A stretch of 64,000 bases of DNA from Candidatus Oxydemutatoraceae bacterium (GTDB lineage Bacteria; Pseudomonadota; Gammaproteobacteria; Poriferisulfidales; Oxydemutatoraceae), in the NCBI GenBank assembly GCA_965223735.1, contig OZ245010.1, positions 276,924-340,923 on the forward strand. Reading direction: 5' to 3'. Position numbers and translations under genes: made by a program. The first letter of the stretch is position 1. Each line of letters starts with the position of its first letter. The notes under the pieces are model-generated. The model was not told the origin of the DNA, made no database searches, and saw nothing but the letters and a program-made list of their open reading frames with translations. This document shows, piece after piece, positions 5,817 through 26,077 of the stretch.

Positions 5817-5891
5817 TGGAGCGGGAAACGGGGTTCGAACCCGCGACCCCAACCTTGGCAAGGTTGTGCTCTACCACTGAGCTATTCCCGC
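5817..5891 (-). tRNA. tRNA-Gly (anticodon GCC)
   Basis: The reverse complement reads GCGGGAATAGCTCAGTGGTAGAGCACAACCTTGCCAAGGTTGGGGTCGCGGGTTCGAACCCCGTTTCCCGCTCCA. It has a cloverleaf with anticodon loop CTTGCCAAG and an encoded CCA end. Confidence 0.93.
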
Positions 5892-5989
5892 ACACGAGCG
5901 TTGAATTGTAGGTGGTCGGCGTCGGCTGTCAATACGGCTTGTGTCCGGTCGCATAAAAGCGGTGGGAACGGCTATACTTCGCGCGCGAG

Positions 5990-6063
5990 GGCTAGTTGGC
6001 AGAGTGGTGATGCAGCGGCCTGCAAAGCCGTGTACACCGGTTCGATTCCGGTACTAGCCTCCA
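5990..6063 (+). tRNA. tRNA-Cys (anticodon GCA)
   Basis: GGCTAGTTGGCAGAGTGGTGATGCAGCGGCCTGCAAAGCCGTGTACACCGGTTCGATTCCGGTACTAGCCTCCA. The acceptor stem is GGCTAGT/ACTAGCC, the anticodon loop CTGCAAA and the T-arm GGTTCGATTCC. Confidence 0.9.
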
Positions 6064-6148
6064 CCTTTCAGCGTCACGCGGGAGTGATCGGGGGTGCCCC
6101 AGCACCCGATAGAATCACAACGTGGGAACGTCTCAAGCGAGTTGCAAG

Positions 6149-6154
6149 TATAAT
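6149..6154 (+). promoter_or_regulatory. Candidate -10 hexamer (TATAAT) 21 nt upstream of tRNA-Leu
   Basis: A perfect TATAAT lies at 6149-6154. No properly spaced -35 was found. Confidence 0.2.
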
Positions 6155-6175
6155 CACGGGCGCAGAGTGCGCTTT

Positions 6176-6263
6176 GCCCGGGTGGCGGAATTGGTAGACG
6201 CAAGGGACTTAAAATCCCTTGGGCTTTTTGCCCGTGCCGGTTCGAGTCCGGCTCCGGGTACCA
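6176..6263 (+). tRNA. tRNA-Leu (anticodon UAA), long variable arm
   Basis: GCCCGGGTGGCGGAATTGGTAGACGCAAGGGACTTAAAATCCC...GGTTCGAGTCCGGCTCCGGGTACCA. It is 88 nt with anticodon loop CTTAAAA and closely resembles enterobacterial leuZ. Confidence 0.92.
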
Positions 6264-6445: not shown

Positions 6446-7045
6446 TCAAGGCTGGTAGGAGAACTCGGCGGCGAGCCCCACGGTGCCCGACTTTTCCCAT
6501 TTCTGGTCGTGGTCGGTGTACTCGAGTTTTTCCGACTTATGCACGATGATCGGGTAGCCGGGCGCGACCGCCAGGGGATGGTTGTTGACGGTGACGTTGC
6601 CGCCGTCCTCGCCTTCCACCGCGTCCATCTTGACGCTGCCGACGCCTTCGACCATCAGCTCCTTGCGCTTGGGGTCCATCTTGATATCGATGCCAGCTGA
6701 GTGCACGCCCATGACTTCGCCGACCAGGCTTGCGATGACTGCGGGATGCCCGCCGGCTTCGCCGCCGTAGATCTTGGTCAGTGCGTCCTTCTGCTGATCG
6801 TCGGCGTTTTTGTCAATGTACAGCGCCAGCCGCCAGCCGCCGTCGGTCAGCAGTCCGGGTGCGTGCAACCATGCCGCGACTTTCATGCCGGACAGATCGG
6901 TGTCGTCCATGTGGCCGCTCTCGATCTGCCAGCACACAAACGCTTCGCAATAGCCTTTGGTGGGTGGTTGCAGAAAAATGCACGGGCATACGAGGTCGCA
7001 GGTGCACGATTCAAAATATTTACCTTTCAGTTGCCAGTCGGACAT
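6446..7045 (-). CDS. DUF1326 family protein (Cys-rich N-terminus, function unknown)
   Basis: 199 aa. MSDWQLKGKYFESCTCDLVCPCIF... is the characteristic DUF1326 start. It lies divergent to a DUF2182 gene, the usual partner. Confidence 0.8.
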   Translation of the reverse strand: MSDWQLKGKYFESCTCDLVCPCIFLQPPTKGYCEAFVCWQIESGHMDDTDLSGMKVAAWLHAPGLLTDGGWRLALYIDKNADDQQKDALTKIYGGEAGGHPAVIASLVGEVMGVHSAGIDIKMDPKRKELMVEGVGSVKMDAVEGEDGGNVTVNNHPLAVAPGYPIIVHKSEKLEYTDHDQKWEKSGTVGLAAEFSYQP

Positions 7046-7066
7046 TGCTAGCCTCCCCGATTTACA

Positions 7067-7094
7067 TGAAGTCAGTAGATTGAAGTCAGTAGAT
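7067..7094. repeat. Perfect tandem duplication of the 14-mer TGAAGTCAGTAGAT, 20-50 nt upstream of the DUF1326 start codon
   Basis: catGAAGTCAGTAGATTGAAGTCAGTAGATgaac was read directly at 7064-7098 in the DUF1326/DUF2182 divergent intergenic region. Confidence 0.85.
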
Positions 7095-7185
7095 GAACGC
7101 CGATAAGGCTAATCCTTCTGCCGGCGAATGGCAAGCCGCGCCGGAACAAGTGCTAAAATAGGTTTTTTGAGCCGGAATCCCTTGG

Positions 7186-7998
7186 TTGTCGATGGCTGAT
7201 ACCGCCACAATCCGCACCGCCTGGTCGGATCTCGACCCGACAGTGCGTCTGCTGATTGCCGCGGTCATCGCCGCGCTCGCGGCGTGTGGCTGGGCCTACA
7301 TGATTTATATGACGTGGGCAATGGGGCACATGCACTTGGTGGATATGTGGATGCCGCCGCAGTCGGGCGCGAGAGCGTGGACGGCTTACGACTTTACCAT
7401 GCTGTTTGTAATGTGGCTGGTGATGATGGTCGCGATGATGTTGCCGTCGGCGACGCCGCTCGCAATGTTGTTTGCGCAGGTGCAGCAAAAGCGCCGGGGC
7501 AGCGAGCAGATTATCGTGCCGACTTATCTGTTGCTTGCAGGTTACATCGGCGCGTGTGGCGTTTTCAGTGTGGTGGTCACGCTGCTGCAATGGCAATTGC
7601 ATGAGCGTGCGCTGTTGAACCCGATGATGGACAGTCGCAGTTATCTGCTGAGTGGTGTCGTATTGCTGATTGCCGGCGTGTACCAATGGACGCCGTGGAA
7701 AGACGTATGTCTGCGCTATTGCCGCACGCCGATGAGTTTTCTACTCGGTTCGTGGCGCGACGGCGCCGACGGTGCATTCGTGATGGGGCTGCACCACGGC
7801 ACCTACTGCGTCCTGTGTTGCTGGGGGTTGATGCTGGTGATGTTCGCTGTGGGCGTGATGAATATGCTCTGGATGGTGGTGATCACGCTGTTTATTTTGC
7901 TCGAAAAAACCGTTCTGCCGCCGCGTATCGGTTCGATTTCCGTCGGCACCTTGCTGTTGTTGTGGGGCGGGTCGTGGTTGTCGCTGTATCCGTGGTAG
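7186..7998 (+). CDS. DUF2182 family predicted metal-binding integral membrane protein
   Basis: 270 aa, polytopic and His/Met/Trp-rich (WAMGHMHLVDMWMP...), with the typical DUF2182 architecture, paired with DUF1326. Confidence 0.75.
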   Translation: MSMADTATIRTAWSDLDPTVRLLIAAVIAALAACGWAYMIYMTWAMGHMHLVDMWMPPQSGARAWTAYDFTMLFVMWLVMMVAMMLPSATPLAMLFAQVQQKRRGSEQIIVPTYLLLAGYIGACGVFSVVVTLLQWQLHERALLNPMMDSRSYLLSGVVLLIAGVYQWTPWKDVCLRYCRTPMSFLLGSWRDGADGAFVMGLHHGTYCVLCCWGLMLVMFAVGVMNMLWMVVITLFILLEKTVLPPRIGSISVGTLLLLWGGSWLSLYPW

Positions 7999-9244: not shown

Positions 9245-9602
9245 TGGTGGAGGCGGCGGGAATCGAACCCGCGTCCGCAAATTTTCCGCCTTCGGCACTA
9301 CATGCTTAGTCTCGCGCTTAATTTGACCTGCCGTGCCCGGCGAGACGGGGCAGACCGGCAGGCGGTCCCGCTAGAAGTCTGACAGATCGTTCGCGGGCAC
9401 TCCGATCCGTGAGCCTGTAAGTATGACCCTCGTTACGCAGTCACAGGCACCTGTCGTGCGAGGGGCGTGGCCGGTTTTTTAGGCCGCCAGTGCGTAGTTG
9501 TCTTCGTTGGCAACTATTGGTTTGCAGTTTGTTTTACGAGTACACCGCAAACTCGGCATGCACCTCAGGGTTCGCAATCCACGTCGAAGCCGGATCGCCC
9601 CC
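9245..9602 (-). ncRNA. ssrA: tmRNA (SsrA), ~358 nt
   Basis: On the reverse strand the 5' end is GGGGGCGATCCGGCTTCGACGTGGATTGCGAACCC... and the 3' tRNA-like end is ...GCGGGTTCGATTCCCGCCGCCTCCACCA. The internal tag reading frame is GCC AAC GAA GAC AAC TAC GCA CTG GCG GCC TAA ([10 protein letters not shown]), preceded by the resume signal CAAUAGUU. Confidence 0.92.
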
Positions 9603-14576: not shown

Positions 14577-15161
14577 GTGATCGTCGCCAGACCGCTTGTT
14601 CACGTTGCCTGCCTGGTTCCGCTTGCGTGGATGCTCTGGCAGGTGATCAGTGGCGGCGCCGGCGCCAACCCGATCGAATATCTCACCCGTGGCATCGGCG
14701 ACTGGGCCTTGCGCCTGCTGCTGATCACCTTGTCGGTGCGTCCGCTGGCGAGGTTGCTGAAACAGCCGCTGCTGATGCGCCACCGCCGCGCGATCGGGCT
14801 GTACGTGTTCTTTTACGCGCTGTGTCATCTGACGACTTATCTGTGGTTTGACCAGTTTTTTGACTGGGCGGAGATCGCGCGCGACATCGCAAAGCGCCCG
14901 TTCATACTCGCCGGTTTCGGTTCCTTTGTATTGCTGATCCCGCTCGCAGCCACCTCCAACCGTTTCTCGACCATCCGCTTGAAGCAGCGGTGGAAGCAAT
15001 TGCATACGCTGATTTACGTAATTGCCTGCACCTCGCTGCTGCATTACACGTGGATGGTGCGTGCTGATTTCAACAAGGCCTGGCTTTATGCTTTGATCCT
15101 CGCGCTGCTGCTGGGATATCGCCTGTGGGTTTACACGTCGCGCAGGCTGTTGCAGGCGTAG
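14577..15161 (+). CDS. msrQ: Protein-methionine-sulfoxide reductase haem-binding subunit MsrQ (YedZ)
   Basis: 194-aa membrane protein with YedZ-like helices (LRLLLITLSVRPL..., conserved His), immediately downstream of msrP. Confidence 0.85.
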   Translation: MIVARPLVHVACLVPLAWMLWQVISGGAGANPIEYLTRGIGDWALRLLLITLSVRPLARLLKQPLLMRHRRAIGLYVFFYALCHLTTYLWFDQFFDWAEIARDIAKRPFILAGFGSFVLLIPLAATSNRFSTIRLKQRWKQLHTLIYVIACTSLLHYTWMVRADFNKAWLYALILALLLGYRLWVYTSRRLLQA

Positions 15162-15427
15162 CGGTAACCAGTCATATCTTGTTTCTGGGTGTATGTAATC
15201 TGCAAGGAAGTTCGCAGAAAACGCAAGGAAAAAATTAAACTTTTGCACGCGGCATCCGTGCCCGGATAAAGACTCTTGCATCGAGGATCATACGTGCTGT
15301 TCTCGGCCGCTGACTTCCATGTCACCTGTCCGAACCCCTTTATTAACTGCAATAAGCGGGTTTATGCACAACGCAGCAAAATGGAGACTATTCACGCTGA
15401 GCAGAGGCAACAAGGAATTAAGTAGTT

Positions 15428-15685
15428 TCAGTTTTTAGCGAGTTTATTCAGAAGGTTTTCATACTTATATATGAATTCTGGATCTCTTTCGCCTTTTTGA
15501 TAAAAGACGAATGAGGGATATCCGTCGGCGGGCATAAGTCTCAGTTCAGATCTGATGCGTTTTATTGTCCCTCTATCTATGTCATCACCGTCATTTCTTA
15601 CGTTTATTTGTGTTTTTCTATGATCTCTTTTTATATTCCAAGCGTTACCGTAGGCTTCCAAATGAGTTACCTCTTTAGTGTTCAC
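15428..15685 (-). CDS. Hypothetical small protein (85 aa) in an AT-rich islet
   Basis: Intact ORF, MNTKEVTHLEAYGNAWNIKRDHRKTQINV...FVFYQKGERDPEFIYKYENLLNKLAKN. Its AT-rich codon usage is foreign to its neighbours. No family was recognised. Confidence 0.45.
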   Translation of the reverse strand: MNTKEVTHLEAYGNAWNIKRDHRKTQINVRNDGDDIDRGTIKRIRSELRLMPADGYPSFVFYQKGERDPEFIYKYENLLNKLAKN

Positions 15686-15727
15686 TTGACTTGTCCAACT
15701 CCAGGAAGTTCGCTTTGGTAGTGTGGT

Positions 15728-15994
15728 TTAGGTTCTTCGGGGGAAGGCAGAGGACTTTTTCTCGTGCCCGTGAGTTTTTTTCTCGGCTGTGTTTAGTGAT
15801 TCATTGTTTTTCTTCCTTTTTTTAAGCGTTGAGCAAATATCATCCCGGATTTCAGGCTCAAGAAGGTCATTTTCCTTAATATTGACTCCGATCTCATAGC
15901 ACGCTTTGATAACTTCTTGAGTGTCAATCTGCAACAGCTCGGCTATCTGCCAAGGCCTTCTGTTGGATCTGTTTTTTTGCATCTGTGTTTGCAT
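15728..15994 (-). CDS. Hypothetical small basic protein (88 aa) whose central segment resembles the IF2 N-terminal-domain helix-turn-helix fold
   Basis: MQTQMQKNRSNRRPWQIAELLQIDTQEVIKACYEIGVNIKENDLLEPEI... followed by a Lys-rich tail. It is co-directional with and 42 nt upstream of the 85-aa ORF. Confidence 0.45.
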   Translation of the reverse strand: MQTQMQKNRSNRRPWQIAELLQIDTQEVIKACYEIGVNIKENDLLEPEIRDDICSTLKKRKKNNESLNTAEKKTHGHEKKSSAFPRRT

Positions 15995-16177
15995 AGAGTT
16001 GATTTATTAAAACAAATAAGCTTCTCTGAATACAGTAATACCAAAGTCAGGTTCTCTCTTAATTGTAAAAAACCTTCATGTTAAAGAGATTTTAGCGGAA
16101 TTTAATATTGCCTCTTTCCCATAAGATAATGCTACAATATACAATTGTCATTTGGTAAAAACAACAAAAGATGAAAG

Positions 16178-17428
16178 ATGTTTTCCGACGACATGACAAT
16201 CGCAGGTTTTGATCCAGACCTGGCCGAAGCCATTGAGGCTGAAAGAAAGCGCCAGGAAGAACATATCGAGCTGATCGCTTCCGAAAACTACGCAAGCCCG
16301 CGGGTGCTCGAAGCCCAGGGATCGATGTTGACCAACAAATACGCCGAAGGTTATCCGGCGAAGCGTTATTACGGCGGCTGCGAGAATGTGGACGTCGCGG
16401 AACAGTTGGCGATCGACCGCCTCAGACAGTTGTACGGTGCCGACTACGCCAACGTGCAGCCTCACTCCGGGTCGCAGGCGAACGCCGCGGTGTACCTTGC
16501 GCTGTGCTCGCCCGGCGACACGATCATGGGCATGAGCCTCGCGCACGGCGGGCATTTGACGCACGGCGCGACGGTCAACTTCTCCGGGAAGATCTTCAAT
16601 GCGGTGCAGTACGGCATCGACGACGACGGCCTGATTGATTATGACGAGATGGAAGCGCAGGCGGTTGAGCACGAGCCGAAGATGCTGATCGGCGGCTTTT
16701 CCGCCTACTCACAGATCGTCGATTGGGAACGGATGCGCGAAATTGCCGACAAGGTCGGCGCCTACCTGGTGGTGGACATGGCGCACGTGTCGGGGCTGGT
16801 CGCGACCGGCGAATACCCAAATCCAGTGCCGTTCGCCGACGCGGTCACTTCGACGACGCATAAGAGCCTGCGCGGCCCGCGCGGCGGCTTCATCGTCGCC
16901 AGGGCAAACGACGAGATTACCAAAAAGTTCAATTCAATGGTGTTTCCCGGCACTCAGGGCGGGCCGCTGATGCACGTGATCGCAGCTAAGGCGGTGGCGT
17001 TTTACGAGGCATTGCAGCCCGAGTTCAGGGACTACATCCGCCAAGTGAAGAGCAACGCCAAGGTGATGGCGGAGACTTTGATCAAACGCGGTTACGAAGT
17101 GGTGTCGGGCGGCACCGAGAATCACTTGATGCTGGTCAGCCTGATCTCAAAGGGCATGACCGGCAAGGATGCTGACGCCGCGCTCGGCAGGGCGAACATC
17201 ACGGTGAATAAGAACAGCGTTCCGAATGACCCGGAGTCGCCGTTCGTGACCAGCGGCCTGCGCTTCGGAACCCCGGCAATCACCACGCGCGGATTCGGCA
17301 ACGGTGAGACCGAGTACCTGACCCACCTGATCTGCGACGTGCTCGATAACATGGACGACGAGCAAAATATCGGGCAGGTTGCCGGAAAAGTGAAGGAATT
17401 GTGCCGGAAGTTCCCCGTGTATCAGTAA
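16178..17428 (+). CDS. glyA: Serine hydroxymethyltransferase (GlyA)
   Basis: 416 aa with [43 protein letters not shown] and the PLP-lysine region [12 protein letters not shown]. Confidence 0.95.
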
Positions 17429-17455
17429 GCCGGGAAGGTGCAAGGGAGGCTTCCG

Positions 17456-18004
17456 ATGCAGTGCCCAGGTTGTGGTTCCCTGAAGAGTTCAGTTCTGGAC
17501 TCGCGCTATAAGCCACACATCAAGCAGAAGCGTCGCCGTCGCAAATGTAGGCAATGCGATAGGGAGTTTACGACCTTCGAGAAGGTGTCGAACACCCCGG
17601 GGCAATTGCCAAGGGTAATCAAGCGCGACGGGCGGCGTGAACCTTTTAATCGGGGCAAGCTCAGCAGAGGCGTGTTGCTGGCGGTCGCCAAACGTCCGAT
17701 CAGTACCGAAAGAGTGGACGATCTGGTCGATCAGGTTGCCGAGCGTCTGGCGAGTACCGGCAACAAGGAAGTGGAAGCCGAGAGCGTCGGTGAAGTCGTG
17801 ATGCAGGAACTCGGGCGGCTCGACCGCGTTGCCTATATTCGCTTTGCCTCGGTGTACCGAAACTTCAAGGACGCGGGCGCATTCAGGGAGGAGGCTGAAA
17901 CCGTAGAAAGATCGGCGCGCTCCCGCGTGTTCGATACGCAAAGGGATTTTGCTTTTGTCGAGGGCGGCCGGGTAAACGGTTCCGGCCAAGACGATGAGTC
18001 GTGA
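17456..18004 (+). CDS. nrdR: Transcriptional repressor NrdR (zinc ribbon plus ATP-cone)
   Basis: MQCPGCGSLKSSVLDSRYK...RRRKCRQCDREFTTFE is the zinc ribbon, and the ATP-cone carries VAYIRFASVYRNF. GGGAGG lies 6 nt upstream of the ATG at 17456. It has a C-terminal extension of about 25 aa relative to E. coli. Confidence 0.88.
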   Translation: MQCPGCGSLKSSVLDSRYKPHIKQKRRRRKCRQCDREFTTFEKVSNTPGQLPRVIKRDGRREPFNRGKLSRGVLLAVAKRPISTERVDDLVDQVAERLASTGNKEVEAESVGEVVMQELGRLDRVAYIRFASVYRNFKDAGAFREEAETVERSARSRVFDTQRDFAFVEGGRVNGSGQDDES

Positions 18005-19106
18005 AACGTCGGCGCGCGCAGATTCCCGGTACATGGCGCGAGCGCTGCAACTCGCCCGGCGCGGCTTCTACACGACAGCGCCCAATCCCCGCGTCGGCTG
18101 CGTCATCGCCAGCGAAGGGCGCATTGTTGGCGAAGGCTGGCATCTGAGAGCGGGCGGCGCACACGCCGAGGCTGTCGCGCTTGAACGCGCTGGCGGCGGC
18201 GCGCGGGACGCGACCGCCTACCTGACACTGGAACCCTGCAATCATCACGGGCGCACGCCGCCGTGCAGCGACGCGTTGATCGCTGCCGGCATTGCGCGTG
18301 CGGTGATCGCAGTGCGCGATCCCAACCCGCAGGTGACGGGCGGCGGCATCGCGGCGCTCGAGTCGGCCGGCGTCAAAACGAGCGTCGGGGTATGTGAGGC
18401 TCAGGCGCGCGAGTTGAACGCCGGTTTTTTCTCGCGTATGCAGCGCCACCGCCCATGGGTGCGGATCAAGTGGGGGATGAGTCTCGACGGGCGCGTGGCG
18501 CCGGTGTCGGGAAACAGCTGCTGGATTACCGGCGACGATGCGCGCCACGATGTGCAATTGCAGCGCGCGCGCTGCGGCGCTCTATTGACCGGCGCCGGCA
18601 CGGTGCTCGCCGATGATCCGCGTTTGAATGTTCGCCTGAGCGGCGGGGAACTGGGTATTGAGGAGGCGCCGCGTCAGCCTCTGCGCGTCGTCGTTGACGG
18701 GAGACTGCGGACTTCGCTCGACGCGCGGATCTATCGCCCGCCCGGGCGCGCGTTGCTTGCGACCTGCCGTGACGCCGCGGCGTTTGAGGGCGCCGGGGTC
18801 GAGGTCTGGCGCTTTTCGGAAGAAGACGGCCGCGTTCCATTGGTGCAGTTGCTCAGGCGTCTCGCCGAGCGGGAGATCAACGAAGTGCAGATCGAAGCCG
18901 GGCCCGGTCTGTCCGGTGCGTTGATTGAGCGGGGGCTGTATGATGAGATTTTGTTGTATGTCGCGCCTTGTCTGCTCGGCGGCGGCCTGCCGCCGGCCGG
19001 GCTCGACGGCATCACCGAGGTAGAGCAACGCGAGGCGCTCGAATGGCATGACCTGCGCAGAGTCGGGGGCGACCTCAGAATACTCATGCGACGGGGGGAA
19101 CAATAA
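17994..19106 (+). CDS. ribD: Bifunctional riboflavin biosynthesis protein RibD (pyrimidine deaminase / reductase)
   Basis: It has the deaminase zinc motifs HAEAVAL and PCNHHGRTPPC plus a C-terminal reductase domain. It sits in the glyA-nrdR-ribD context. Confidence 0.92.
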   Translation: MSRETSARADSRYMARALQLARRGFYTTAPNPRVGCVIASEGRIVGEGWHLRAGGAHAEAVALERAGGGARDATAYLTLEPCNHHGRTPPCSDALIAAGIARAVIAVRDPNPQVTGGGIAALESAGVKTSVGVCEAQARELNAGFFSRMQRHRPWVRIKWGMSLDGRVAPVSGNSCWITGDDARHDVQLQRARCGALLTGAGTVLADDPRLNVRLSGGELGIEEAPRQPLRVVVDGRLRTSLDARIYRPPGRALLATCRDAAAFEGAGVEVWRFSEEDGRVPLVQLLRRLAEREINEVQIEAGPGLSGALIERGLYDEILLYVAPCLLGGGLPPAGLDGITEVEQREALEWHDLRRVGGDLRILMRRGEQ

Positions 19107-19675
19107 TGTCAACTATCGTTATAGCCAGAAAAGGCGGTTGCGCGTGCATCGCGGCGGATACGCTGACGAGTTTCGGCGAGTTGCGACAGCATTCGGCTTA
19201 TGAAAACAACGGCGACAAGATATTCTTCGACGGCGAGAATTACATCGGCATCGTCGGCAGCGCCGCGCACGAATTGGTGATGAAAAGCATTCTGTCCGAT
19301 CTCGAATATGACTTCAGTTCACGTGAAAATATTTTCGAGTCCCTGCGCAGGATGCACCCGCTTCTGAAAGACGAGTATTTTCTCAATCCCAAGGAGGAAA
19401 GCGACGATCCCTACGAATCGAGCCGTATGGATGCATTGATCATGAACGGCAAGGGTATCTTTGCGGTGTTCTCGCTGCGCGAGGTGTTCGAGTATTCAAA
19501 GTTCTGGGCGATCGGCTCGGGCGGCGATTTCGCGCTGGGCGCGATGTTTGCGCTGTACGGGCGGGACGATCTCGCCGCCGCCGCCGTCGCGCGTGTCGGC
19601 GTCGAGGCGGGGATTGAATTCAACAATGCGTGCGCGCCGCCTGTGACCTCTTATACCGTGAAGCTGGAAGCCTGA
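19106..19675 (+). CDS. Orphan HslV/proteasome-beta-like N-terminal-nucleophile hydrolase homologue (189 aa) embedded in the riboflavin operon
   Basis: MSTIVIARKGGCACIAADTLTSFG...NNGDKIFFDGENYIGIVGSAAHE...FWAIGSGGDFALGAMFALYG aligns end to end with HslV ([24 protein letters not shown]...NDKVIAGFAGGTADA...LIAIGSGGPYAQAAARALL). The start codon overlaps the ribD stop (TAATG) and the ORF ends 9 nt before ribE. No hslU is present in the window. Confidence 0.7.
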   Translation: MSTIVIARKGGCACIAADTLTSFGELRQHSAYENNGDKIFFDGENYIGIVGSAAHELVMKSILSDLEYDFSSRENIFESLRRMHPLLKDEYFLNPKEESDDPYESSRMDALIMNGKGIFAVFSLREVFEYSKFWAIGSGGDFALGAMFALYGRDDLAAAAVARVGVEAGIEFNNACAPPVTSYTVKLEA

Positions 19676-19684
19676 GGCGGCGCC

Positions 19685-20281
19685 GTGTTTGCGGGCATCG
19701 TCGAGGCACTCGGGCGGATCGCGCGTGTTGAGCGACGCGGCGCTGATCTGCGCGTCTCGGTTGAGGTTGACGGCGGGTTCGCCGGGCAGCTTCGGCGTGG
19801 AGACAGCGTGATGGTCAGCGGCGTATGCCTGACCGCGATCGAACTCGACGGCGTTTCGTTTACGGTTTTTGTTTCAGCGGAGACCTTGGCGTGCACGACG
19901 CTCGGCAACTGGAACGAGGGCGAGATGGTCAACCTCGAACGCGCTTTGCGCGTGGGCGGGCGTATCGACGGTCACTTCGTCAGCGGTCATGTAGATGCCG
20001 TCGGGCGTATCGGCGCACGAACCACCGACGCGCTCAGCGAGCGCTTTGAAATTGAAGCGTCGCCGTCTCTTGCGGTACTGGTCGTGGTCAAGGGCTCGAT
20101 CTGCGTGGATGGCGTGAGCCTGACCGTCAACGACGTGTCCGATACCAAATTCAGCGTGAATATTATCCCCTATACACTTGAAAACACGACTTTTTCTCTG
20201 CGCCAACCCGGGGACGCCGTGAATCTGGAAGCCGACTTGATCGCCCGCTATATCGCGCGTCATTTCGGGTTCCTCGGCTGA
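19685..20281 (+). CDS. ribE: Riboflavin synthase alpha chain
   Basis: GTG start. MFAGIVEALGRI...GDSVMVSGVCLT plus the internal repeat GHFVSGHVD...SLTVNDV make the two-lumazine-binding-domain architecture. Confidence 0.9.
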   Translation: MFAGIVEALGRIARVERRGADLRVSVEVDGGFAGQLRRGDSVMVSGVCLTAIELDGVSFTVFVSAETLACTTLGNWNEGEMVNLERALRVGGRIDGHFVSGHVDAVGRIGARTTDALSERFEIEASPSLAVLVVVKGSICVDGVSLTVNDVSDTKFSVNIIPYTLENTTFSLRQPGDAVNLEADLIARYIARHFGFLG

Positions 20282-20292
20282 GGGGTGCCACC

Positions 20293-21384
20293 GTGCCGAC
20301 TTCCAGCGTACAGGAGATCATCGCGGACGTCCGCGCCGGGCGCACCGTCATCATCGTTGACGATCAGCACCGTGAGAACGAAGGTGACCTGATCGTCGTC
20401 GCCGAGAAGACGACGCCGGAGGCGATCAATTTCATGAGCAAGTACGGGCGCGGGTTGATCTGCCTGACGCTGACGCACGAGCGGTGCAGGCAGCTGAATC
20501 TGCCGCTGATGGTCAGCGACACCGATAATCGTCTCGCGACGAACTTCACGCTCTCGATCGATGCGCGCGAAGGCGTCACGACCGGCATTTCAGCGCAGGA
20601 CCGCGCGCAGACAATCCGTACGGCGGTGGTCGCCGACGCGCGTCCGTCGATGATCACCCGCCCCGGGCATATCTTTCCGCTGATGGCGCAGCCCGGGGGG
20701 GTGCTGACACGCGCCGGGCACACCGAGGCCGGCTGCGACTTGGCGCGGTTGGCCGGGCTGGAACCCGCCGCCGTCATCGTCGAGATCCTGAAGGACGACG
20801 GCAGTATGGCGCGGCGCGACGACATCGAGGCGTTCGCTGCTGAACACGCGCTGAAGATCGGCACGATCGAGGACCTGATCGCTTATCGTATCGAGCGGGA
20901 GCGAACGGTTCGCTTTGTCAGGGGCGAGAAGATGAAGACCGGATACGGCGAATTCACGATGCATATCTACGAGGACGTTGTGAACCGCACGTCGCATCTC
21001 GCGCTGACTTGCGGCGACATTCGTCGCGATGAGCCGGTGCTAGTGCGCGTGCACGTCGAGAACACGCTGCACGATACGATCGGGATTACCGGCGGATCCT
21101 GGCCTTTGTCCGACGCCCTGAGGAAGATCACCGCCGAGGGCAGGGGGGTGGCGGTGGTGCTGAGATTGCCGGAAAAATATGCGGGCCTGCAGGAGCAGGT
21201 CGGCGAAATGTTGCAGGCCGACAGCGCGCGTGTGCGGAAGCCGATGGATCGCTGGACGCTGGGCGTCGGAGGCCAGATCCTGAACGATCTCGGCGTCGGG
21301 CGCATGCGCCTGATGAGTTCGCCGCAGCGTTTTCACGGCCTCGGCGGTTTCGGGCTGTCGATTGAGGAGTACGTCAATGAGTGA
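20293..21384 (+). CDS. ribB: 3,4-dihydroxy-2-butanone-4-phosphate synthase fused to a GTP-cyclohydrolase-II-like domain that lacks the zinc-ligand cysteines (RibBX-type)
   Basis: The N-terminal half is RibB ([39 protein letters not shown]). The C-terminal half is colinear with RibA, but the segment equivalent to ECLTGD...RCDCG reads [15 protein letters not shown] with no Cys. Confidence 0.85.
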
Positions 21385-21874
21385 AGCGGGAGATACCGTG
21401 AATGACCTGCCGAAAATCGTCGAGGGCGATCTCGACGGGCGCGGTCTGCGCGTGCGCATTGTCGCGTCCAAGTACAACCGCGCAATCGTTGACGCTTTGC
21501 TCGAAGGCGCGCTGAAAGCGTTGCGTGCGCACGGTGTTCACGGCAAGGACATCATGGTTGTGCGCGTGCCCGGCGCATTTGAAATCCCGTTGGCGCTGGA
21601 ACAGGTTGGCGGCGAGTGCGACGCGCAGATCGCACTCGGTTGCGTGATCCGCGGGGAGACTGCGCACTTCGACCAGGTGGTCGGACAGTGCAGCCACGGT
21701 CTGCTCGATGCGATGGCGTCGCTCGGGATCCCGGTCGCGTTCGGCGTGCTGATGGTCGAGAATATTGAGCAGGCGCGTGCACGCGCGGGTGGCGTTTCCA
21801 ACCGCGGTGAGGAGGCGGCGCTCGCGGCCATTGAAACCGCCAGTCTGCTGAAGAAGATCAAGGCCGGTGAGTAG
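21377..21874 (+). CDS. ribH: 6,7-dimethyl-8-ribityllumazine synthase (RibH)
   Basis: LRVRIVASKYNRAIVDALLEGA...VPGAFEIPLA...HFDQVV. The start is ambiguous (21362, 21377 or 21395) and overlaps the ribBA end. Confidence 0.88.
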   Translation: MSEAGDTVNDLPKIVEGDLDGRGLRVRIVASKYNRAIVDALLEGALKALRAHGVHGKDIMVVRVPGAFEIPLALEQVGGECDAQIALGCVIRGETAHFDQVVGQCSHGLLDAMASLGIPVAFGVLMVENIEQARARAGGVSNRGEEAALAAIETASLLKKIKAGE

Positions 21875-22313
21875 TTTCGAAGGCAGGTCCGGGGATGACC
21901 CCGGGCGGCGGCGCGCGAACTTGAGCGCGCGGGGATGGGCGCGCCGTCTCGCAATGCAGGCGGTGTATCAGCAGAAAGTTGCGGGCCTGGAACTCGATGA
22001 AGTCGTTGTTGAGTTTCAGCAGGATGAGTCTTTCGTCAAAGCCGACGCCAACTATTTCATGCGGTTGATGCACGGCGGAGCGGAGCATATAGCGGAGATC
22101 GCCGAGCAAATCGGGGAGATCACGGGGTATGATTTTGAGTTGGTGGATCCGGTTGAACGCGCCATCTTACTCAATGCCGCTTATGAGATTCTGTTCGTGT
22201 CCGAAGTGGATAAAGCCGTCGCCATCACTGAAGCTGTGCGTCTTGCAAAACAATTCGGCGCCGGCGGGGGCTATCGCCTGGTCAACGGCGTGCTCGATAA
22301 ACTCAACGCCTGA
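21867..22313 (+). CDS. nusB: Transcription antitermination factor NusB
   Basis: ARRLAMQAVYQQKVAG...AVAITEAVRLAKQFGAGGGYRLVNGVLDKL. It holds the conserved position after ribH. Confidence 0.9.
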   Translation: MSSFEGRSGDDPGRRRANLSARGWARRLAMQAVYQQKVAGLELDEVVVEFQQDESFVKADANYFMRLMHGGAEHIAEIAEQIGEITGYDFELVDPVERAILLNAAYEILFVSEVDKAVAITEAVRLAKQFGAGGGYRLVNGVLDKLNA

Positions 22314-22414
22314 GTTTCGTCTGCCCGGCCCTTCGTGACGTTTCTGCAACTGTAAGACATCGACTTGTCTGAACTCGGCCGGACCCCGATATGAACCGCG
22401 TATAGACCCCGGTT

Positions 22415-23413
22415 ATGGATGAGCAAAGCCTGATCGAACGTTATTTTGTGCGTCCCGCCGATGCCGATGTCGTTGTCGGCATCGGTGACGACGCGGCGGT
22501 GCTTGCCTGCGACGCGCGCGCGGAAGTCTCCGGCGGACAATACTTGGTGGTGACGGCGGATACCCTGGTTGAAGGGCGGCATTTCAGCGTCGGCGCCGAC
22601 GCCAATGAGGTCGGACATAAAGCGCTTGCGGCCAGCCTCAGCGACACGGCTGCAATGGGGGCGACGCCGCGCTGGGCGACGTTGTGTCTGTGTCTGCCCG
22701 GCGCGGACGAGGCCGGGACTGAACGCTGGATCGCGAGGTTTGCGCGCGGGTTTTTTGCGTTGGCGCGGCGTTGGGAGGTTGCGCTGGTCGGCGGCGACCT
22801 GGTGCGCGGGTCGAGCCGCACGGTCAGCGTGCAACTGGTCGGAGTCGTTGATGCGTCGCGGGTCCTGTTGCGCTCGGGCGCGTGTCCCGGCGACGGTGTT
22901 TATGTGACCGGTGCCGTCGGCGACGCCGGCGTCGCGTGGCGCCGGAGTGACGCGTTGCCGGTGATGCCCGCCGGCGTCGCTGATGGCTGTCGCGCGAGAT
23001 TGCATCGCCCCGAGCCGAGGGTGGAGGAGGGGAAGGCACTTTCCTGTTTTGCTTCTGCAGCGATTGACGTGTCTGACGGCCTGCTGCTCGACCTGTCGCG
23101 TCTGGCGCGCGCAAGCGGTGTCGCCGTGCGACTCGAAGTTGAGCAGGTGCCGCTCGGCGAAGCTTGCCGATTGATCTGCCGCAAGCTCGAGGACTGGTCG
23201 CTGCCGCTGACCGGCGGCGACGATCACGAACTGCTGTTCACGATGAAGGATGACCGGCGGGTGGCGCTGGAAAGGGCGCTCGGCGGTCAATCCGCCACGG
23301 TGACCCGGATCGGGCGGGTGATCGATGAAGGCGGGGAGTGTTTGCAATGCACCTTTGAGGGGCGGCATTGGCCGCTGCCGGACCCATTGGGATTCGATCA
23401 TTTTGCTTGTTGA
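22415..23413 (+). CDS. thiL: Thiamine-monophosphate kinase (ThiL)
   Basis: IGDDAAVL...LVVTADTLVEGRHF...ALAASLSDTAAMGA are AIR-synthase-related family motifs. It sits in the nusB-thiL-pgpA synteny. Confidence 0.88.
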   Translation: MDEQSLIERYFVRPADADVVVGIGDDAAVLACDARAEVSGGQYLVVTADTLVEGRHFSVGADANEVGHKALAASLSDTAAMGATPRWATLCLCLPGADEAGTERWIARFARGFFALARRWEVALVGGDLVRGSSRTVSVQLVGVVDASRVLLRSGACPGDGVYVTGAVGDAGVAWRRSDALPVMPAGVADGCRARLHRPEPRVEEGKALSCFASAAIDVSDGLLLDLSRLARASGVAVRLEVEQVPLGEACRLICRKLEDWSLPLTGGDDHELLFTMKDDRRVALERALGGQSATVTRIGRVIDEGGECLQCTFEGRHWPLPDPLGFDHFAC

Positions 23414-23420
23414 AATAACT

Positions 23421-23479
23421 TCTGTTATCTTCTTCTATTTTCTGTTATAATTCAATATAATCTGTTATTTCCTGTTATT
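23421..23479. repeat. Four direct copies of TCTGTTAT (at 23421, 23441, 23461 and 23472) in an ~80-bp AT-rich spacer between thiL and pgpA
   Basis: ttcTGTTATcttcttctattttcTGTTATaattcaatataatcTGTTATttccTGTTATtttataatcg was read directly. The first three copies are spaced at exactly 20 bp. The local GC is about 25% against about 63% in the flanks. Confidence 0.8.
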
Positions 23480-23495
23480 TTATAATCGTTGACCG

Positions 23496-23972
23496 ATGCC
23501 TCCCTCCCTCCGATTGCTGCTCTCCGACCCGGCGCATTGCATCGCCCTCGGTTTCGGCGCGGGCCTGGTGCCGGTGTTGCCCGGCACCGCCGGTTCGCTG
23601 GTCGGCCTGCTGCTGTTCTTTGCCGTCCGCGATTGGCCATGGCCAGCGTATCTCTGGTTTGTCGCCGCCTGGGTCGTTGTGGGTGCGCTCGCGGCACATC
23701 GTTCAGCGCGGCTGCTGGGCGACAAGGACCCGTCGTGCATCGTCGTCGATGAGATCGCCGGGATGCTGCTGGCGCTGTTCCTGCTGCCGGCCGGGTGGGC
23801 GTGGCCGCTGGTCGCGTTCACCTTGTTCCGGGCGGCGGATATTTTCAAGCCGTGGCCAGTCAGTTTCGCGGATCGGCGCGTGCCGGGTGGTTTCGGTATC
23901 ATGCTCGACGATCTGCTCGCCGGCGCGTACGCGCTTGCCGGCGTACAACTGCTGAACCGCCTGAGCGCCTGA
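23496..23972 (+). CDS. pgpA: Phosphatidylglycerophosphatase A (PgpA)
   Basis: 158-aa membrane protein with GFGAGLVP.LPGTAGSL and VVDEIAGM motifs typical of PgpA. Confidence 0.88.
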   Translation: MPPSLRLLLSDPAHCIALGFGAGLVPVLPGTAGSLVGLLLFFAVRDWPWPAYLWFVAAWVVVGALAAHRSARLLGDKDPSCIVVDEIAGMLLALFLLPAGWAWPLVAFTLFRAADIFKPWPVSFADRRVPGGFGIMLDDLLAGAYALAGVQLLNRLSA

Positions 23973-23978
23973 TCCGCG

Positions 23979-25388
23979 ATGACGATCCGCACCCGCTTCG
24001 CACCCAGTCCGACCGGCTTTCTGCATATCGGCGGGACGCGGACGGCGCTGTTCTGCTGGCTGTACGCGCGCCGGCACCGGGGTGAGTTCGTTTTGCGCAT
24101 TGAAGACACCGACCGCGAGCGTTCAACCGACGCGGCGACCGCGGCTATTCTTGACGACCTTGCGTGGCTCGGTCTCGTCCACGACCTCGGCCCGTTCCGC
24201 CAGAGCGAACGCGGCGCACGCTATCGCATGGCGGTCGAGCGCCTGCTCGACGAAAACAAGGCGTACCATTGTTACTGCACGCGCGAGGAACTCGATGAAT
24301 TGCGCCGCGAGCAGCAGGCGAGGGGACAAAAACCGCGTTATGACGGACGCTGCCGCGCGCGCAAGGCGCCGCGCGCGGGCGTCGATCCGGTGGTGCGTTT
24401 CATGGCGCCCACCGGCGGCGTCGTTGCTTTTGACGACCTCGTGCACGGGCGCATCGGAATTGCCGACTCGGAACTCGACGATCTGGTGCTGTTGCGTTCG
24501 GACGGCACGCCGACTTATAACCTGAGCGTCGTGGTGGATGACGCCGAGATGAGGATCACGCAGGTAATCCGTGGCGACGATCACATCAACAATACGCCGC
24601 GACAGATCCGCCTGTTTGAGGCGCTGGGCGCGGCGGTGCCGCAGTATGCCCACCTGCCGATGATCCTCGACGCGGACGGTTCGCGGCTGTCAAAACGCAG
24701 CGGCGAGGCCGGCGTCGGCCGTTACCGCGAGGAGGGATACCTGCCGCAGGCGCTGCTGAACTATCTGGTACGTCTCGGCTGGTCTTCAGGCGACCGCGAG
24801 ATCTTCTCTCTCGACGAGATGGTCGATCTGTTCACGCTCGAAGCGGTGAACGTGTCGGCCGCGTCGCTGAATCCGGAAAAACTGAACTGGCTGAACGGGC
24901 ATTACCTGAAAACTTTACCGGCGTCGGAATTGGTGCCTTTGTTTGAAGCGCAACTCACGCGCGCCGGATTTACAGGGTATGAAGCGTCGTCGCAGCGGGT
25001 GTTCGAGGTCTTGCGTACGCGCTGCAAAACCCTCGGGGACATGGCCGCGGACGCCGCTTTCATTTATGCCGCCGACGGGGTGGTCGATGCGGGGCAGGCG
25101 GCGCGGTACTTGAAACTCGGGACCAGACCGATACTCGAGGCTCTGCTGGCGCGGTTTGAAGCGCTCGAGGTCTGGGATCAGAAGACGATACGGCAGGCGT
25201 TGGACGCCACGCTCGCAGCGCTCGGTATCACGATCGGCCGGCTGGGGCCGCCGTTGCGGTTCGCTATCACCGGCGGCGCCGCGAGTCCGGAACTGGCGGT
25301 GACCGCGGCGTTGATCGGGCGCGAGCGTTGCCTGGCGCGCATTAAAAAAACGCTGGAATCGATGCCCGATGAGCCCCGTGCCGGGTAG
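23979..25388 (+). CDS. gltX: Glutamyl-tRNA synthetase (GltX)
   Basis: RTRFAPSPTGFLHIGGTRTALFCWLYARRHRGEFVLRIEDTD is the HIGH region, and KMSKS is present as RLSKRSG. 469 aa. Confidence 0.93.
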   Translation: MTIRTRFAPSPTGFLHIGGTRTALFCWLYARRHRGEFVLRIEDTDRERSTDAATAAILDDLAWLGLVHDLGPFRQSERGARYRMAVERLLDENKAYHCYCTREELDELRREQQARGQKPRYDGRCRARKAPRAGVDPVVRFMAPTGGVVAFDDLVHGRIGIADSELDDLVLLRSDGTPTYNLSVVVDDAEMRITQVIRGDDHINNTPRQIRLFEALGAAVPQYAHLPMILDADGSRLSKRSGEAGVGRYREEGYLPQALLNYLVRLGWSSGDREIFSLDEMVDLFTLEAVNVSAASLNPEKLNWLNGHYLKTLPASELVPLFEAQLTRAGFTGYEASSQRVFEVLRTRCKTLGDMAADAAFIYAADGVVDAGQAARYLKLGTRPILEALLARFEALEVWDQKTIRQALDATLAALGITIGRLGPPLRFAITGGAASPELAVTAALIGRERCLARIKKTLESMPDEPRAG

Positions 25389-25414
25389 CGCCGGGCAGGT
25401 ATAAGGAGGCTGCG

Positions 25415-26077
25415 TTACAGACCCGCATCGCCGGGCGCGGCCGTTTCAAGCACGGTGATGCGCGCGAGGACGCCGAGCAGTGGGTGATCGAGGTAGTAGA
25501 GTTTGTTGTCGGTCATCACTTCTTTCAGGTGGATGAACACCGTGCTGCTTTCAGGAGATTCCTGTTCGGACGGTTCCAGATCAGCGAAGCCGGGCTCATA
25601 GAGCAACGTTATTGCGAATTGAAAATAGCGTTCGTACGACAGTTTCAGGGTGCCTTTGAGCAGGTTGTGGCGGCGCTCGGGTATCAATGAGATGTACAGT
25701 GCATTTTGCGGATCGTACACGGGCTGTTGCCACGAGACCTGGTGCAGCAGTTCAAACTTCTCGGACCGGCCCAGCTTTTCGATCTCAACGCTCAGTTTAT
25801 TTTCGCCCGGGATCAGGTGGGCGCGGTTGTCTTCGCCGTTGGTCTGTTTCTCGCTCGAAGAAGGAAACAGTTCGACGCTCGCCTGAATGCTGTCGCCGGG
25901 GTGGGGCGGTACATTCAGGATGTCGTTGATTTGCTCCGCAGAGGTTGTCGTGTGGCGGAAGATCAGCAGATCCACCCGACACAGCGTCGGTACCGGCTCC
26001 TGCGCCGGTGCAGGCATCGGTATCAGTAACGATATTGCCAGCGATAAGGCCGACGGCAACGGCGGGAATTTCCTCAC
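25415..26077 (-). CDS. Hypothetical secreted protein (signal peptide), function unknown
   Basis: 220 aa. MRKFPPLPSALSLAISLLIPMPAPAQEP is a signal peptide. The start is 4 nt downstream of the mfd stop (convention: minus strand) and overlaps it by 4 nt. No family was recognised by eye. Confidence 0.6.
   Translation of the reverse strand: MRKFPPLPSALSLAISLLIPMPAPAQEPVPTLCRVDLLIFRHTTTSAEQINDILNVPPHPGDSIQASVELFPSSSEKQTNGEDNRAHLIPGENKLSVEIEKLGRSEKFELLHQVSWQQPVYDPQNALYISLIPERRHNLLKGTLKLSYERYFQFAITLLYEPGFADLEPSEQESPESSTVFIHLKEVMTDNKLYYLDHPLLGVLARITVLETAAPGDAGL

Follow-up and report, generated by a model that had tools for sequence, protein, structure and literature searches.

What place does a proteasome-like gene have in the middle of a riboflavin operon? 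The question is raised by a 64,000-nucleotide stretch of DNA from a Candidatus Oxydemutatoraceae bacterium (GenBank assembly GCA_965223735.1, contig OZ245010.1, positions 276,924 to 340,923; hereafter the window, whose own numbering is used throughout), in which a 189-codon open reading frame (ORF) lies between ribD and ribE. Its product is a Ser1-type member of a known and crystallised family, the betaproteobacterial proteasome homologues (BPH), an assignment that is firmly supported, and the position between the two rib genes is kept throughout a gammaproteobacterial clade. That clade-wide position is the new point; the BPH family, its structure, Ser1 and the pore loop were known. From a conserved place in the rib operon alone, a role in flavin synthesis does not follow, and the reading that we prefer, at a probability of roughly 0.65, is that a Ser1 BPH reached this position by one ancestral insertion, has been inherited vertically and has a general role outside riboflavin synthesis. 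The genes at the junction are as follows.

19106..19675, plus strand: BPH gene, 189 aa, Ser1-type proteasome-like N-terminal nucleophile (Ntn) peptidase (from the ORF, PDB matches, AlphaFold2 model and dN/dS)
17994..19106, plus strand: ribD, deaminase/reductase (Pfam dCMP_cyt_deam_1 and RibD_C)
19685..20281, plus strand: ribE, riboflavin synthase, 198 aa (two Pfam Lum_binding domains)

An earlier note on this DNA, made from its letters alone, had placed the ORF at these coordinates, with a TAATG overlap upstream and a 9-nt gap downstream, and its description is exact: at 19104-19108 the ribD stop and the BPH ATG have one base in common, and the ribE GTG at 19685 stands 9 nt past the BPH end. 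That the ORF is a real gene, and one that purifying selection strongly constrains, is seen from a homologue search, which returned more than 3000 homologous clusters, and from dN/dS, which is 0.11-0.12 against the two closest relatives, compared with 0.18-0.27 for ribD, ribE and ribH. The codon usage had also been described as AT-richer than that of the neighbouring rib genes. This did not hold: GC content at third codon positions (GC3) is 0.714 for BPH and 0.717 for ribE, within a neighbour range of 0.665-0.829, and the lower total GC of BPH stems from codon positions 1 and 2, that is, from amino-acid composition. With GC3 equal to that of ribE, vertical conservation and a low dN/dS, we rejected the idea of a foreign or recently acquired gene.

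The junction gene encodes a BPH

Searched against the PDB with phmmer, the window protein matched the BPH of Cupriavidus metallidurans (Cm-BPH, 5OVU) with E = 3e-54 and that of Thiobacillus denitrificans (Td-BPH, 5OVS/5OVT) with E = 1.7e-39, both over the full length, whereas the best HslV match reached only 4e-3. Profile searches gave the same order. The Pfam Proteasome family PF00227 scored 15.2 bits (E = 0.017), under its gathering threshold of 22.4; the HslV equivalog models TIGR03692 and NF003964 scored 22.3 bits (cut-off 157.75) and 22.2 bits (cut-off 137), respectively; and the HslV profile match was limited to residues 124-167 (E = 8.8e-5). A probe with an approximate sequence of Escherichia coli HslV returned 24% identity with E = 0.6. 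In a neighbour-joining tree of 122 sequences with Kimura distances, the window protein was placed inside the BPH radiation.

The fold agrees. An AlphaFold2 monomer model (pLDDT 83.7, pTM 0.83), in which the low-confidence segment is the acidic pore loop, was compared with the PDB using Foldseek. The top six hits were all BPH chains, with TM-scores of 0.83-0.88 and 41-46% identity, followed by HslV (TM-scores of 0.60-0.71, ~20% identity) and, from rank 28 onward, 20S beta subunits. The BPH identity of the protein follows from these comparisons, since its BPH matches in both the PDB search and the fold far exceed those to HslV.

The earlier note had read the protein as an orphan HslV, aligned with HslV over its whole length and carrying unusual features. 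The alignment stands at the level of the fold and fails at the level of sequence, where the profiles cover residues 124-167 only. The protein misses the HslV model cut-offs, and the three supposed oddities have all been published as traits that define BPH or are common in it: the serine at position 1, the acidic loop and the lack of an HslU partner. As the equivalog models fall short by over 110 bits and the matches to BPH are far stronger, we rejected the orphan HslV; membership of the BPH lineage, which the same note had offered as one possibility, was borne out by the PDB search and the fold comparison.

Public databases name these proteins otherwise. NCBI calls several ~190-aa BPHs (P0076, P0097, P0111, P0114, P0274, P0286, P0290, P0324 and P0354) "MFS transporter", and the JGI name for BPH proteins is "HslVU peptidase subunit HslV". 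None of the NCBIfam MFS models matched the window BPH. Both labels are incorrect and look like a propagated misannotation of the family.

Catalytic residues, N terminus and pore loop

The catalytic set of Td-BPH consists of Thr1, Asp17, Lys37, Gly50 and Ser139, the last of which forms a hydrogen bond with the nucleophile (PMC5777263); the window protein has S2, D18, K38, G51 and S138 at the equivalent positions. Conservation was read from an alignment of 24 relatives (A1) and from a family-wide alignment of 93 sequences (A2).

19109..19111, plus strand: Ser2 codon, predicted nucleophile (Ser1) after presumed removal of Met; aligns with Thr1 of Cm- and Td-BPH
19157..19159, plus strand: Asp18 codon (Asp17 of Td-BPH); invariant in A1, at least 90% in A2; role taken from PMC5777263
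19217..19219, plus strand: Lys38 codon (Lys37 of Td-BPH, Lys33 of the proteasome); the sole fully invariant column in A2 (n = 93)
19256..19258, plus strand: Gly51 codon (oxyanion-hole Gly50 of Td-BPH); invariant in A1, at least 90% in A2
19514..19522, plus strand: G137-S138-G139 of the AIGSGG loop; G137 and G139 invariant and S138 at least 90% in A1, G137 and G139 at least 90% in A2
19382..19432, plus strand: acidic pore loop, residues 93-109 (LNPKEESDDPYESSRMD); collinear with the Cm- and Td-BPH loops

All the motifs first picked out by eye (the MSTIV start with its Ser in the place of the nucleophile, the conserved Lys, AIGSGG and the acidic loop) are thus present. The protein has no propeptide: M-S-T-I-V opens the ORF, and the position of the ATG is set by the base that it shares with the ribD stop. 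The N-terminal MST is invariant in the 24 relatives, and the BPHs of rib operons begin with MSTIV (64/82) or MSTVV (16/82). One BPH among the loci L001-L080 begins with MTTIV, an apparent Ser-to-Thr reversal in a Ser1 clade.

Neither the serine nor the acidic segment sets the protein apart from its family. Position 1 is Ser in 58 and Thr in 34 of 92 full-length representatives of 50%-identity clusters, and Ser1 has been reported in BPHs outside the Betaproteobacteria, including that of the gammaproteobacterium Thioploca ingrica (PMC5777263); being both published and carried by 58/92 representatives, it is no anomaly. The loop LNPKEESDDPYESSRMD matches that of Cm-BPH (INTKEDEDDPYESSQIV) and that of Td-BPH in length and acidic pattern, with 8 acidic residues at positions 90-110 (rib-clade mean 7.2). 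This segment has been described as the BPH pore loop (PMC5777263, PMC8665760), and we therefore rejected its reading as a new insert.

Comparison with known systems

The nearest described proteins are Cm-BPH and Td-BPH (Fuchs et al. 2018), to which the window protein is homologous over its full length, with 46% and 42% identity, respectively, in structural alignment. It resembles them in fold, in the positions of the catalytic Asp, Lys, Gly and Ser, in the lack of a propeptide and in the acidic pore loop. It differs in having Ser1 rather than Thr1, in its gammaproteobacterial rather than betaproteobacterial host and in its operon, which is ribD-BPH-ribE here, pyruvate dehydrogenase (PDC) in Cupriavidus and argG in Thiobacillus. 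The Ser1 BPH of Thioploca ingrica (Fig. S3 of Fuchs et al. 2018) comes likewise from a sulfur-oxidising gammaproteobacterial lineage and has the same N-terminal pattern, (M)ST(I/V)VV...CIAADT.T.FG, with Ser as putative nucleophile; no genomic context is given there for Thioploca-type Ser1 BPHs, whereas the clade of the window protein has a conserved rib position.

HslV (ClpQ), the ancestral family, has the same proteasome-beta-like Ntn fold, a nucleophile right after Met and the GSGG loop. In contrast to it, the window protein has ~20% identity, a long acidic pore loop and an expected 14-mer assembly (by homology) rather than a 12-mer, and is flanked by ribD and ribE with no adjacent hslU, whereas hslV is nearly always in an operon with hslU. 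The 20S beta subunits and Anbu have the Ntn-hydrolase proteasome-like fold and the logic of the catalytic triad in common with it; they differ at 14-18% identity, and the window protein comes with no alpha ring, propeptide or COG2307/2308/transglutaminase genes.

Neither hslU nor a second hslV or BPH was found in the 64 kb, a small part of the genome, with approximate probes that gave chance-level matches, and among the related loci with mapped genes the 12-kb flanks contain no hslU-like gene. A missing unfoldase is the published situation for BPH (PMC5777263, PMC8665760); the HslU-contact residues are reported as not conserved in BPH, and HslU was not co-purified with it (PMC5777263).

The ribD-BPH-ribE order is conserved in relatives

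A scan of species-representative genomes returned at least 383 relatives, of which the best 80 (55-82% identity; loci L001-L080) were analysed by mapping the neighbour proteins of the window onto their loci. All 80 are uncultured Gammaproteobacteria labelled Chromatiales, Thiotrichales, Ca. Oxydemutatoraceae or Ca. Porisulfidus. Directly downstream of BPH stands ribE in 80/80 loci, at a median gap of 7 nt; on the upstream side, the first gene met is ribD in each of the 74 loci that have a flank there, at a median gap of 16 nt. The earlier note had proposed this comparison, and the order is kept at both junctions. Two further Ser1 BPHs (57-58% identity) likewise lie in a rib context.

In 17 loci, BPH is followed by ribE and then ribH, with ribBA gone (L005-L010, L013, L015, L016, L018, L019, L021, L023, L025, L027, L028 and L049), and three (L011, L017 and L020) have no rib gene after ribE within the flank. 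Median identities to the 80 relatives are 59.5% for BPH, 55.6% for RibBA, 49.6% for RibD, 46.4% for RibE, 44.6% for NrdR, 44.1% for RibH and 38.1% for NusB.

In the closest complete relative, a Ca. Oxydemutatoraceae metagenome-assembled genome (L002), ribE starts 6 nt past BPH. Its RibE (6577-7377) is 266 aa long, against 198 in the window, owing to a ~70-aa insertion in the first lumazine-binding domain that is rich in charged residues and Gly.

Published BPH contexts are argG/argF, pyruvate dehydrogenase and Hsp33 (PMC5777263, PMC3235984, PMC8665760). We found no link between rib genes and a proteasome in the literature, nor functional work on BPH after 2021. As far as can be told, the arrangement is undescribed in print, though common in public data, and the note's statement to that effect holds for the searchable literature: the word "riboflavin" occurs zero times in the main BPH papers.

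Operon and expression signals

16178..25388, plus strand: co-directional, tightly packed array glyA-nrdR-ribD-BPH-ribE-ribBA-ribH-nusB-thiL-pgpA-gltX, presumed operon or supraoperon
19093..19099, plus strand: Shine-Dalgarno-like GGGGGGA, 6 nt before the BPH ATG and within the 3′ end of ribD; read from the sequence, function presumed
16102..16145, plus strand: two overlapping sigma-70-like promoter matches upstream of glyA; weak, from a consensus scan whose number of matches equals chance expectation

Pfam identified the neighbours of BPH as SHMT, NrdR, RibD, RibE, RibBA, RibH, NusB, ThiL, PgpA and GltX, which confirms the cluster from glyA to nusB as first described, and an identical public contig bears matching gene calls for the array. 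Its genes overlap or are separated by at most ~100 nt. Within 15000-25500, promoter-like matches in the consensus scan were confined to the region just upstream of glyA, and no terminator-like site was found at the BPH junctions; weak ones lie inside glyA, thiL and gltX. No flavin mononucleotide (FMN) riboswitch was found within the window. Most likely, BPH is co-transcribed with the housekeeping glyA-nrdR-rib-nusB array, and its expression would then be constitutive.

Between an msrQ-like gene and glyA lies an AT-rich island (15200-16200; GC 0.35-0.43, compared with 0.60 for the window) with two small minus-strand ORFs (15428-15685 and 15728-15994) of no confident family, one of which has a weak, sub-threshold IF2_N-like match. 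Elsewhere, at 9245-9602 (minus strand) and 5820-6260, the window has genes for a tmRNA (215 bits) and three tRNAs, and its other large ORFs are housekeeping genes (PurL, Mfd, UvrC, CcmF, ComEC, an ABC exporter and aconitase).

The rib position belongs to one clade

In the tree described above, the 82 rib-context BPHs fall in one clade, together with two single long-branch intruders: P0315, which stands alone after a phosphoglucomutase (PGM) gene, and P0123, whose contig of just 927 nt is uninformative on context. The sister group consists of Thr1 forms in gluQ-BPH-Hsp33/Hsp15 contexts. A single ancestral insertion thus looks like the explanation of the rib position, as judged from the tree, and because one clade and one such insertion fit the data, the 80 loci do not count as independent observations.

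Outside the clade, BPHs with 42-57% identity lie by DUF2277, between tldD and pmbA, after DUF4037 and an AAA_18-like gene, after PGM, alone, in gluQ-Hsp33/Hsp15 arrays or among unknown genes. None of the ten sampled there, and none of the three contexts in the literature, is rib-related; across independent BPH lineages, the rib association was found in one clade only.

Two of these outside contexts are of interest in their own right. At L089 (3469-7094), a Ser1 BPH (P0363, 46% identity) is flanked by tldD and pmbA, the genes for the two subunits of a peptide-processing metalloprotease; this context may be more telling on BPH function than the rib context. At L092 (3931-7518) and L093 (3988-6072), Thr1 BPHs of the sister clade lie in proS-SLT-gluQ-BPH-Hsp33-(FMN_bind_2/PaiB-like)-Hsp15 arrays, which extend the published Hsp33 context; one neighbour at L092 is an FMN-binding-domain gene.

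Approached from the side of ribE, BPH is seldom present in comparable operons. We sampled 80 metagenome loci by RibE (44-54% RibE identity; a sample from the matches listed and not a census), of which 59 were informative. Among these matches, ribD abuts ribE in 37/59 and BPH is present in 3/59.

The junction is otherwise occupied in 8 of the RibE-sampled loci. An FMN riboswitch (RF00050, 83-123 bits) stands just upstream of ribE in L097, L098, L099, L149, L158 and L176. Inserted genes, identified by eye and not by profile, are a Gfo/Idh/MocA-like oxidoreductase (L098, 1164-2180), a methyltransferase-like ORF (L158, 1854-2621), an unknown 287-aa ORF followed by an MFS transporter (L163, 1135-3164) and an MCP on the opposite strand (L152, 1339-3366, minus strand). 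Since a riboswitch and other genes have also been inserted there, the ribD-ribE boundary is a recurrent, tolerated insertion point. Where the riboswitch occupies the junction, it divides an otherwise identical glyA-nrdR-ribD/ribE-ribBA-ribH array into an unregulated and a riboswitch-regulated part. It was found neither in 11 BPH loci nor in 12 loci where ribD abuts ribE without BPH, and the latter leave the idea that BPH replaces a junction FMN riboswitch without specific support.

How the rib position may be explained

The preferred reading is as follows. A BPH gene would have entered the permissive ribD-ribE junction once and descended vertically from there, translationally coupled between its two neighbours and expressed constitutively as a rider in a housekeeping operon. 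By analogy with the Thiobacillus and Cupriavidus proteins, the start Met would be removed and Ser1 exposed as the nucleophile, assisted by D18 and K38, with Gly51 forming the oxyanion hole and the Ser of the GSG loop contributing. At 42-46% identity to crystallised BPH, the subunits are predicted to assemble as a stacked pair of heptameric rings, whose inner cavity would contain the active sites and be lined by the acidic pore loop, which probably selects substrates. The particle would work without an AAA+ unfoldase or ATPase. Its role would be a general one, undefined at the level of substrates and not specific to riboflavin synthesis.

Several observations count against this reading. BPH has kept its position across a deep radiation (NusB 38%, RibE 46%), even in the 17 loci without ribBA, and is more conserved than the Rib enzymes that surround it; a functional partnership also predicts both. 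The strict rib-only split of the tree was recovered in 8/100 bootstraps, owing to the two intruders, and the RibE-ascertained sample was drawn from the first 600 pattern matches listed. Purified Cm- and Td-BPH showed no activity on casein or on any of the standard peptide substrates, so that the name peptidase is inferred from inhibitor binding (PMC5777263).

The partnership that these points allow is a coupling to riboflavin biosynthesis special to this clade, in which BPH would be a dedicated controller or maturation factor of RibD, RibE or RibH. It might degrade or process one of these proteins or gate their assembly, as a post-translational control in an operon without an FMN riboswitch. 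The earlier note had raised a role tied to flavin biosynthesis, and the part of it that stands is the synteny, at 80/80 for ribE and 74/74 for ribD with distances suited to translational coupling; BPH also persists after ribBA leaves the cluster, and its conservation exceeds that of the Rib enzymes. There is a precedent as well, in the suggestion of 2008 that BPH replaces PdhR in PDC operons (PMC3235984). Neither the window nor 11 BPH loci have an FMN riboswitch and some relatives hold one at the exact junction, but the 12 riboswitch-free loci in which ribD abuts ribE without BPH make this trait one that is not specific to BPH carriers. Against the role stand the single phylogenetic origin of the arrangement, with 80 loci that are not independent, the unrelated operons of close BPH relatives, the 3/59 in the RibE-based sample and the other insertions at the junction. 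In Cupriavidus, pull-downs showed no operon neighbours bound to BPH (PMC5777263), and the flavin role appeals to adjacency for a family of which no substrate is known. We consider such a coupling unlikely, if worth keeping in view.

The inertness of the purified proteins also bears on a different explanation, which we hold to be improbable: that BPH is no conventional protease at all and acts as a peptide ligase or transpeptidase (cf. connectase), as a narrow amidohydrolase on a small peptide or metabolite, or as a quiet chaperone-like or scaffold cage. In proteasomes, Ser1 is less effective than Thr1 as a nucleophile (PMC5777263), the proteasome-like family includes a ligase (PMC7980362), and one BPH homologue sits between the peptide-processing genes tldD and pmbA. 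Yet the catalytic residues are kept as a complete set under strong selection, the binding of epoxomicin and MG132 to Td- and Cm-BPH is productive, as it is in proteasomes (PMC5777263), and a double ring with internal active sites is the architecture of a compartmentalised protease. Least credible, and in our view hardly tenable, is a divergent HslV still partnered with an HslU encoded elsewhere in the genome. BPH did descend from HslV, and JGI annotates many members of the family as its subunit, but the equivalog models score 22 bits where 137-158 are needed and the solved BPH structures match better by ~50 orders of magnitude; the HslU contacts are reported as non-conserved and HslU as not co-purified (PMC5777263), HslV lacks the long acidic pore loop, and no hslU was found in the 64 kb.

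Implications for the BPH family

BPH has crystal structures yet no known substrate, partner or phenotype, and the question of its function dates from 2008. The published clues are three operon contexts in a handful of Betaproteobacteria. To these the rib operon adds a fourth, the first documented for the Ser1 forms that make up the majority of the family, and an extremely stable one, found in 80/80 BPH-ascertained genome loci and in further metagenome contigs. BPH repeatedly settles within constitutive housekeeping operons. The rib synteny also supplies a concrete and cheap hypothesis, namely that Rib proteins are BPH substrates. If the flavin link is not real, the window protein is an ordinary member of its family in a lineage-specific position; if the coupling is true, it would provide the first physiological BPH substrate and show that, where operons have no FMN riboswitch, vitamin B2 synthesis can be controlled by proteolysis.

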